Below are positions 52,622 through 53,200 of a DNA stretch of 64,000 bases, in pieces. Under the pieces are notes generated by a model. That model was not told the origin of the DNA. It did not search any database and saw only the letters and a list, made by a program, of their open reading frames with translations. Every line of letters starts with the position of its first letter. Within the stretch, counting starts at the first letter, position 1. The DNA comes from Giardia intestinalis. Lineage: Eukaryota. The position numbers were made by a program, and so were the translations under genes. The stretch lies in assembly GCA_000002435.2 (NCBI GenBank), contig CM018789.1; one strand, 5' to 3'.

Positions 52622-53200
52622 ATCGATAAGTGCGAAATAGTCGGTGACGCAGAGATCTGCACCCAGTGCAACGGAGATGGGTCTCAATCTGCCCCGACGG
52701 ACGGAGTGTGCTCAGCAGACAATAACGAGTGTACCCGGAAGCAAGATGGGAAGTGCACACAGTGCGCTAATAGGTCCTTCATGTACAAGGGCGGATGCTA
52801 CAAGGATAGCCAGGCACCTGGCAACACGATGTGTGAAGCAGCAAATGCTGGAGTATGCACACAGGCTAAGGAAGGGTACTTCCTGCTACCAGACGCAGAC
52901 GACTCTCACCAGTCGGTCATACCGTGCGGAGATGACACAGTAGTAACAGTTAGCGGCGATAAGAAGTACAAGGGCGTGCTGCACTGTACTTAGTGTAATA
53001 CACCTGACGCAGCACAGGATACTACTACTCCCAAGGCTGCCACTTGCACGACCTGTGAGGATGGTTTCTTTGTAGATAGTAGTAATAGATGCACTGCTTG
53101 TCCGGAGAACTGCCTGACCTGCACTGGTAAAATAGTCAAGGAAGAAGCCGACGGGGCAACTGCTTACATTGCTACTAATGACTGTATTCAACTTTCTAGT
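52622..53200 (+). pseudogene. VSP / high-cysteine membrane protein pseudogene fragment (N- and C-terminally truncated, in-frame TAG)
   Basis: One frame reads ...ICTQCNGDG...ECTRKQDGKCTQC...GGCYKD...EGYFLLPDADDSHQSVIPCGDDTVVTVSGDKKYKGVLHCT. An in-frame TAG at 52991-52993 interrupts the reading frame. Beyond it the frame continues as CNTPDAAQDTTTPKAATCTTCEDGFFVDSSNRCTACPENCLTCTGK..., showing the CxxC spacing and GYF(L/F) motifs typical of Giardia VSPs. There is no start codon, no TM and no CRGKA tail, and the frame runs into a GC-rich non-coding block. Confidence 0.6.

Follow-up and report, generated by a model that had tools for sequence, protein, structure and literature searches.

The window analysed here, a stretch of 64,000 nucleotides from Giardia intestinalis (contig CM018789.1 of NCBI GenBank assembly GCA_000002435.2), carries at 52622-53130 the remnant of a gene for a variant-specific surface protein (VSP). 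We hold it highly probable (roughly 0.88) that this locus is a dead Giardia VSP gene (a pVSP), which was dead before its lineage split from that of a syntenic ortholog and which is still in ectopic recombination with the VSP family. The identity of the remnant, its lesions, its synteny, the truncation that it shares with the ortholog and the mosaic pattern of its differences are directly visible in the comparisons presented here. An initial annotation of this DNA had taken it for a non-functional, C-terminally truncated pseudogene of VSP type. The lesions shared with the ortholog uphold this core reading independently of the in-frame TAG codon at 52991, which the annotation had singled out, and the pseudogene verdict is the same whichever base stands at that position.

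The ortholog, L001, is a locus on an ENA metagenome contig (MEGAHIT k141) that encodes the protein P0001. L007, another VSP-like locus of that sample, and L008, a further paralogous locus, were aligned with the window and L001 in a four-way alignment for the mosaic test, and five contigs of the Logan collection (L002-L006, from five SRA runs) cover the upstream part of the locus. The locus comprises the following features.

52536-52542, plus strand: relic of a VSP initiator, CAcTGTT in place of the published consensus CAatgTT / PyAatgTT; identical in L001.
52538-52585, plus strand: relic of a leader (signal peptide), LFVVIAIHITILLNPC, in the ectodomain frame and collinear in tblastn with the leader of the VSP P0009.
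52592-52594, plus strand: TGA in frame that parts the leader relic from the ectodomain; also in L001 and in contigs L002-L006.
52619-52622, plus strand: in-frame TAG at 52619-52621, where L001 has CAG, and next to it, at 52622, an indel of 1 bp; contigs L002-L006 are identical to the window.
52622-53130, plus strand: VSP ectodomain fragment of 170 codons, recognised by the Pfam VSP profile, by Cys and CXXC content and by homolog alignments.
52991-52993, plus strand: in-frame TAG; CAG (Gln) in L001 and L008, CGG in L007.
53131-53250, plus strand: non-VSP sequence past the shared 3' breakpoint; homolog alignments end at 53122-53131, and there is no Pfam match in six frames.
53251-53640, strand not applicable: GC-rich (~65%) non-coding block, 95.9% identical in L001, which is the level of the spacers, with a 1-bp indel at 53376.

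Identity of the fragment

Read in frame 1 from 52622, the fragment translates into IDKCEIVGDAEICTQC...EGYFLL...QSVIPCGDD...KGVLHCT*CNTPD...CTTCEDGFFVDS...CTACPENCLTCTGK (asterisks mark stop codons); the plus-strand translation in the frame of 52601 runs SRRTAS*IDKCEIVGDAEICTQC...KGGCYKD...EGYFLLPDADDSHQSVIPCGDD...KYKGVLHCT*CNTPD...CTTCEDGFFVDSSNRCTACPENCLTCTGK. The archetypal VSP ectodomain strings listed in the initial annotation (CxxC, EGYFLL, QSVIPCGDD, KGVLHCT*CNTPD) are all found in frame. Cysteine accounts for 19 of the 170 codons (11.2%), and the fragment holds five intact CXXC motifs, one more that is split by the TAG, and one GGCY, which lies within KGGCYKD and is a motif frequent, though not universal, in VSPs. 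No CXC motif occurs in these 170 codons.

The resemblance to VSPs is not a matter of chance, because the translation matches the Pfam VSP profile PF03302 (positions 164-311 of 397; E 2.9e-13) with 49.9 bits, above the curated cut-off of 31.4 bits. A protein database search with the fragment matched ten proteins, three of which bear the name 'Variant-specific surface protein, partial [Giardia duodenalis]'; the named VSP homologs are 49-58% identical to the fragment, and VSPs in the database score down to E 1.5e-113. The best match, at 84% identity, is the 347-aa P0001 of the ortholog. Among the matches, the nearest relative whose C-terminus is complete is P0005, which terminates in CRGKA.

The initial annotation had left the choice between VSP and HCMP open. 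The features that mark HCMP or CRMP proteins, CXC besides CXXC and a transmembrane helix followed by a variable tail other than CRGKA, are not found in the fragment, and VSP is favoured over HCMP because P0005 ends in CRGKA, the fragment is free of CXC and its best matches are VSPs. The VSP half of that designation thus stands and the HCMP half does not. As judged from its sequence, the fragment is Giardia DNA of VSP type.

Relics of a start codon and a leader

Immediately upstream, the ectodomain frame translates as MDKTRETLWPLTLFVVIAIHITILLNPCSC*VRSRRTAS*IDKCE. VSP genes are initiated within the consensus CAatgTT (PyAatgTT) and encode signal peptides of 14-17 amino acids (PMC2996952). The corresponding heptamer of the window differs from this consensus by an A-to-C change, which turns the former start codon at 52538-52540 into CTG. 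The leader relic that begins there aligns in tblastn with the N-terminal leader of P0009, LLVVFYFVLSALAGAC, and its length is compatible with that of a VSP signal peptide. The heptamer family YANTGTT occurs 66 times on the two strands of the window, which is the level expected by chance, and the argument for an initiator therefore rests on exact position and frame and not on the motif alone. We infer that the ancestral start codon lay at 52538.

What is left here is not a functional VSP start with a signal peptide: the start is CTG and two stop codons separate the leader from the ectodomain, which fits a former member of the family. The initial annotation had stated that the fragment has neither start codon nor signal peptide. 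This is accurate for the present frame, but it overlooks the relics of both that lie just upstream at 52536-52585 in the same frame. For the same reason the description as a truncated fragment applies to the 3' end, not to the 5' end, where relics of initiator and leader are present.

A syntenic ortholog with shared lesions

L001 is collinear with 42603-53688 of the window over 11,093 bp at 97.2% identity, and the two carry the same SRP54, Lipase_3, 206-aa and 414-aa genes. They also carry the same damage, namely the lost start (CACTGTT), the TGA at 52592 and the 3' breakpoint at ~53130, which is followed by the same GC-rich block. Since the lost start, this TGA and the 3' truncation are common to both, the gene was dead before the lineages of the window and L001 split. 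Further lesions are private: the TAGs at 52619 and 52991 belong to the window, both being CAG in L001, and in L001 a base is missing at 52622, so that the leader relic there no longer lies in frame. Relative to the functional family, the locus thus carries disabling lesions that are conserved between the two lineages or have accumulated within one of them, as is characteristic of a pseudogene. P0001 itself is a gene-caller read-through, which starts at GTG, leaves the leader relic in another frame and continues into the GC block.

The Logan contigs L002-L006 match the window with 99.97-100% identity as far as 52706-52726 and thereby confirm the lost start, both upstream stop codons and the base at 52622. 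The exact 414-aa neighbour is present in 89 blocks of the Logan collection, and every Logan contig that carries this gene ends inside the VSP fragment, at 52706-52726. The position of these contig ends indicates that other VSP loci of the same genome contain the sequence that follows in nearly identical form.

Mosaic divergence and exchange with paralogs

Identity between the window and L001 is 97.3-98.8% in the neighbouring genes, 95.4% in the spacer at 50718-51045 and 91.5% in the spacer at 52291-52501, and it amounts to 86.2% in the VSP fragment. The differences within the fragment are unevenly spread, with 3 in 52740-52859 versus 37, a 6-bp indel included, in 52860-52979. By a scan statistic, 32 of 113 difference events fall inside 120 bp, a degree of clustering that was reached in none of 20000 permutations. 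The rate of synonymous divergence (dS) in the fragment is 0.37, compared with 0.03-0.09 in the neighbouring genes, and the ratio of non-synonymous to synonymous divergence (dN/dS) is 0.21. Synonymous changes make up a fraction of 0.52 in the VSP frame; the other two frames give 0.18 and 0.21, and 0.22 is expected (binomial p 1e-7; when the expectation is set generously at 0.30, p is 2e-4).

The four-way alignment resolves this divergence into segments of different affinity.

52691-52768, plus strand: first conversion-like tract; L001 agrees with L007 at 77/78 positions and with the window at 71/78.
52769-52845, plus strand: segment in which L001 agrees with L007 at 71/77 positions and with the window at 76/77.
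52860-52979, plus strand: hyper-divergent patch with 37 differences from L001 in 120 bp, including the 6-bp indel.
52886-52936, plus strand: segment in which L001 agrees with L007 at 52/57 positions and with the window at 37/57.

Across 52876-52927, L007 sides with L001 at 12 of the 13 sites that differ, and the 6-bp insertion of the hyper-divergent patch is common to L001 and L007. Differences that are clustered, synonymous in one particular frame and matched by a paralog point to gene conversion with other VSP genes, and ectopic conversion from donors that were probably functional would be the simplest account of the mosaic. Over stretches of 78 bp and 57 bp, L001 and L007 are nearly identical, which fits a transfer in either direction.

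The best-surviving alternative, which we nonetheless consider improbable, is that of a passive relic altered by point mutation alone, whose patchy divergence would reflect a locally raised mutation rate or alignment noise. The adjoining upstream spacer, itself rather diverged at 91.5%, speaks for this alternative, as do the small sample sizes. Neutral mutation, however, cannot generate a synonymous bias confined to one reading frame, nor can it make ortholog and paralog agree at 12 out of 13 successive sites of difference and share a 6-bp indel, and the clustering seen in 0 of 20000 permutations is equally difficult to reconcile with it.

The initial annotation had suggested that such fragments act as a reservoir for gene conversion into expressed VSPs. 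Exchange with paralogs is indeed evident, but the data point to sequence entering the pseudogene, not leaving it.

As a separate observation, L007 (ENA ERZ27317378 k141_106982, positions 323-874) is VSP-like and has a good leader, MFYAVLLIGLALQLA, and a 2-bp gap relative to other VSPs ends its open reading frame (ORF) at 146 aa. By its sequence, L007 may be either another pseudogene or the product of an assembly error.

The 3' breakpoint and the DNA beyond it

When the ten homologs are aligned to the window by tblastn, VSP homology ends for all of them at 53122-53131 (CLTCTG). Secondary tblastn alignments past 53131 are weak and gapped (34% and 36% identity), and we do not regard them as VSP homology. 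Measured against P0005, the loss 3' of ~53130 amounts to at least 216 residues, including the transmembrane helix and CRGKA. A tblastn search of the window with this CRGKA-bearing protein found no sequence coding for a transmembrane helix or CRGKA on the plus strand after the fragment; the window has just one such sequence, at 63681-63986 on the minus strand, and it is part of a separate VSP. The absence of a transmembrane segment and a CRGKA tail, as initially described, is thereby borne out. The sequence at 63681-63986 is the 3' end of an apparently intact VSP gene with a canonical terminus, which continues beyond 64000 so that its 5' part lies outside the window.

The initial annotation also saw the frame run into a GC-rich non-coding block, and this agrees with a GC content of 0.655 across 53200-53599 and with searches that detected no coding signal. 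In six frames, Pfam finds nothing in 53131-53640. Rfam contains no family matching 53251-53640, and the predicted RNA fold of the block is no more stable than that of shuffled controls (z -0.10 and +0.49 for the two strands). There are no copies of the block elsewhere in the window, and an exact 22-mer from it is absent from JGI metagenome contigs. An exhaustive HMMER search with one frame of the block against 1.84 billion representative proteins returned the ortholog and two weak matches to tandem-repeat ORFs, which we judge to be due to chance. Substitutions between the window and L001 in the downstream non-VSP DNA look neutral (7 synonymous, 13 non-synonymous), and the 1-bp indel at 53376 interrupts every long ORF that spans this position. 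We conclude that the GC block is a single-copy non-coding spacer.

At 53640-53646 on the plus strand, AGTAAAC overlaps the TGA that closes the read-through frame from the VSP fragment; ~0.3 matches are expected there by chance. The heptamer fits AGTRAAY, the consensus of the Giardia polyadenylation signal.

The TAG at 52991, sequencing error and the genetic code

An in-frame TAG does interrupt the VSP frame at 52991-52993, as the initial annotation had claimed. Its statement that VSPs carry K or R at this position does not hold for the sequences most closely related to the fragment: the residue is Q (CTQC, CAG) in P0001, P0006 and P0007, that is, in the ortholog and the closest paralogs, and elsewhere K (P0002-P0004), R (L007), T (P0005) or V (P0009). 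Since L001, L007 and L008 all have C at 52991, the T of the window is derived, the TAG having arisen from CAG by a C-to-T change, and the ancestral residue was Gln and not K or R.

An error of sequencing or assembly at this TAG, with the locus in truth coding for a VSP that is intact and expressible, or for a cysteine-rich protein that is secreted, is very unlikely in our estimation. It could draw on the fact that the T at 52991 is seen in one assembly, on the CAG codon of the ortholog and on the 347-aa ORF of P0001 called there. Yet even without this TAG the frame still has no in-frame ATG, and the TGA at 52592 and the TAG at 52619, which are confirmed in five independent assemblies, remain. 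P0001 offers little help to this explanation, given its GTG start, a leader relic in another frame and a tail that extends into GC-rich DNA without protein relatives, in which substitutions look neutral and the strains differ by a 1-bp indel. Were the TAG an error, its correction should restore a full-length VSP ORF. No such ORF is recovered, as the start is lost, the TGA at 52592 stays in place and neither a transmembrane segment nor CRGKA is encoded downstream on the plus strand.

In hexamitid diplomonads (Hexamita and Spironucleus relatives), TAA and TAG encode Gln. That TAG is likewise read as Gln here, leaving the frame uninterrupted, is scarcely credible, even if both TAGs private to the window (52619 and 52991) align with CAG in the ortholog, as C-to-T at CAG is the commonest route to a nonsense codon. 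The window has 22 ORFs of 300 aa or more, of which TAG ends 8 and TAA 9, and no conserved neighbouring gene requires read-through of an in-frame TAG; hence the standard code applies.

A probable history of the locus

The most probable history is that of a dead VSP gene that continues to exchange sequence with its family. The copy would once have possessed its own initiator, start codon and signal peptide. The change from ATG to CTG, the TGA after the leader and the loss of the sequence 3' of ~53130 all preceded the split of the window and L001 lineages. Private lesions followed in each lineage, in the window the TAG at 52619 and the TAG at 52991 (by C-to-T from CAG), in L001 the 1-bp deletion at 52622. 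The locus would since have yielded no VSP, and short tracts of it would nevertheless have been overwritten, in one or both lineages, by paralogous sequence from copies that evolved under selection. Such overwriting by paralogs would account both for the divergence of the fragment, several times that of its flanks, and for the selected look of its differences.

Several points weigh against this reading. The T at 52991 is seen in the assembly of the window alone: exact look-ups of the products of ORFs that cover or flank it returned nothing, and the Logan contigs end earlier, at 52706-52726. The dN/dS estimate is based on only ~61 substitutions. L001 and L007 are metagenomic; contig chimerism, or a mixture of two Giardia strains in that sample, is improbable though conceivable. 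L007 has a 2-bp frameshift, so that at least one of the exchange partners may also be a pseudogene. The paralogs compared come from outside the window's own strain, and the transfer may have run either way.

Neighbourhood of the locus

Two genes with ankyrin content lie downstream of the pseudogene.

53915-54871: ankyrin ORF.
58544-60643, minus strand: NEK-ankyrin gene.

Between them, at about 55768-55944 on the minus strand, a reverse transcriptase (RT)-like relic with a YTDD box matches RVT_1 below the cut-off (E 1.2e-3, 19 bits), and its flanking DNA at 54872-55770 is rich in GC and poor in ORFs. By its sequence it is probably the remnant of a dead non-LTR retrotransposon of the kind reported near VSPs. 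A truncation of the VSP gene by this relic is unsupported, as the two lie 2.6 kb apart with the ankyrin gene between them. A second GC-rich stretch (60-64%) occupies 61000-63600, between the NEK-ankyrin gene and the terminal VSP; it contains overlapping, junk-like ORFs only and has no similarity to the GC block at 53251-53640.

Farther away, the window contains the nuclear RNase P RNA at 24684-24927 on the minus strand, a full-length match to the Rfam model RF00009 with 78 bits and the sole Rfam match in the window, and a single ORF of 4207 aa at 8990-21613, also on the minus strand.

Relation to known systems and significance

In isolate WB, 217 cysteine-rich pseudogenes have been reported, ~89% of them pVSPs, with internal stops, missing starts, C-terminal truncations and signal peptides in another frame, and with NEK genes, ankyrin genes and relics of retrotransposons in their vicinity (Rodriguez-Walker et al., bioRxiv 10.1101/2022.03.07.483299). 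The locus described here resembles them in its cysteine-rich ectodomain, its internal stops, the lack of a usable start, the C-terminal truncation without transmembrane segment or cytoplasmic tail, and a leader recoverable by inspection only. It fits the pVSP class with its neighbourhood included, because an ankyrin ORF, an RT-like relic, a NEK-ankyrin gene and a terminal VSP gene are close by in the window. The differences are that the copy is solitary instead of forming part of a linear array, and that it is syntenic and already dead in a second lineage; none of these is categorical. Three vsp genes without ATG are known, such ATG-less copies being regarded as probable pseudogenes, and silent array members have been proposed as recombination cassettes (Adam et al. 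2010, PMC2996952).

The G. muris genome paper (PMC7641422) describes VSPs and psi-VSPs as exchanging sequence by recombination or segmental gene conversion, citing Adam et al. 2010 for this 'as previously demonstrated in G. intestinalis'. Here, too, a psi-VSP is mosaic with family members, and silent copies are discussed as recombination partners. The evidence from the window differs in being a comparison of ortholog and paralog at a single locus, and in pointing to the pseudogene as the recipient.

The pseudogene archive of variant surface glycoprotein (VSG) genes in Trypanosoma brucei, from which mosaic VSGs are formed, is similar in that a large silent store of damaged surface-antigen genes can exchange segments. 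It differs in that expression-site conversion is not known in Giardia. Antigenic switching in Giardia has instead been described as leaving both the sequence and the location of the DNA unchanged (PMC2996952).

Pseudogenes of VSPs and gene conversion among VSPs are both in the literature already, and the class to which the locus belongs, as an ordinary member, is well described. As a by-product, our analysis provides a clean single-locus case, with a syntenic ortholog as control, in which a long-dead VSP copy is apparently still receiving sequence from paralogs. The test behind it, mosaicism between ortholog and paralog combined with dN/dS in a dead frame, is simple and could be used genome-wide. 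The resulting signature of elevated, clustered and frame-specific synonymous divergence supports the proposal, already published, that VSPs and psi-VSPs are reshuffled by gene conversion. Whether such a pseudogene also acts as a donor, with segments of it being copied into expressible VSP genes, is a more speculative matter, and we consider an active donor role in addition to that of recipient rather doubtful. If it were true, new mosaic antigens would arise at the level of DNA, in an organism that is held to vary its antigens purely by epigenetic or post-transcriptional means.
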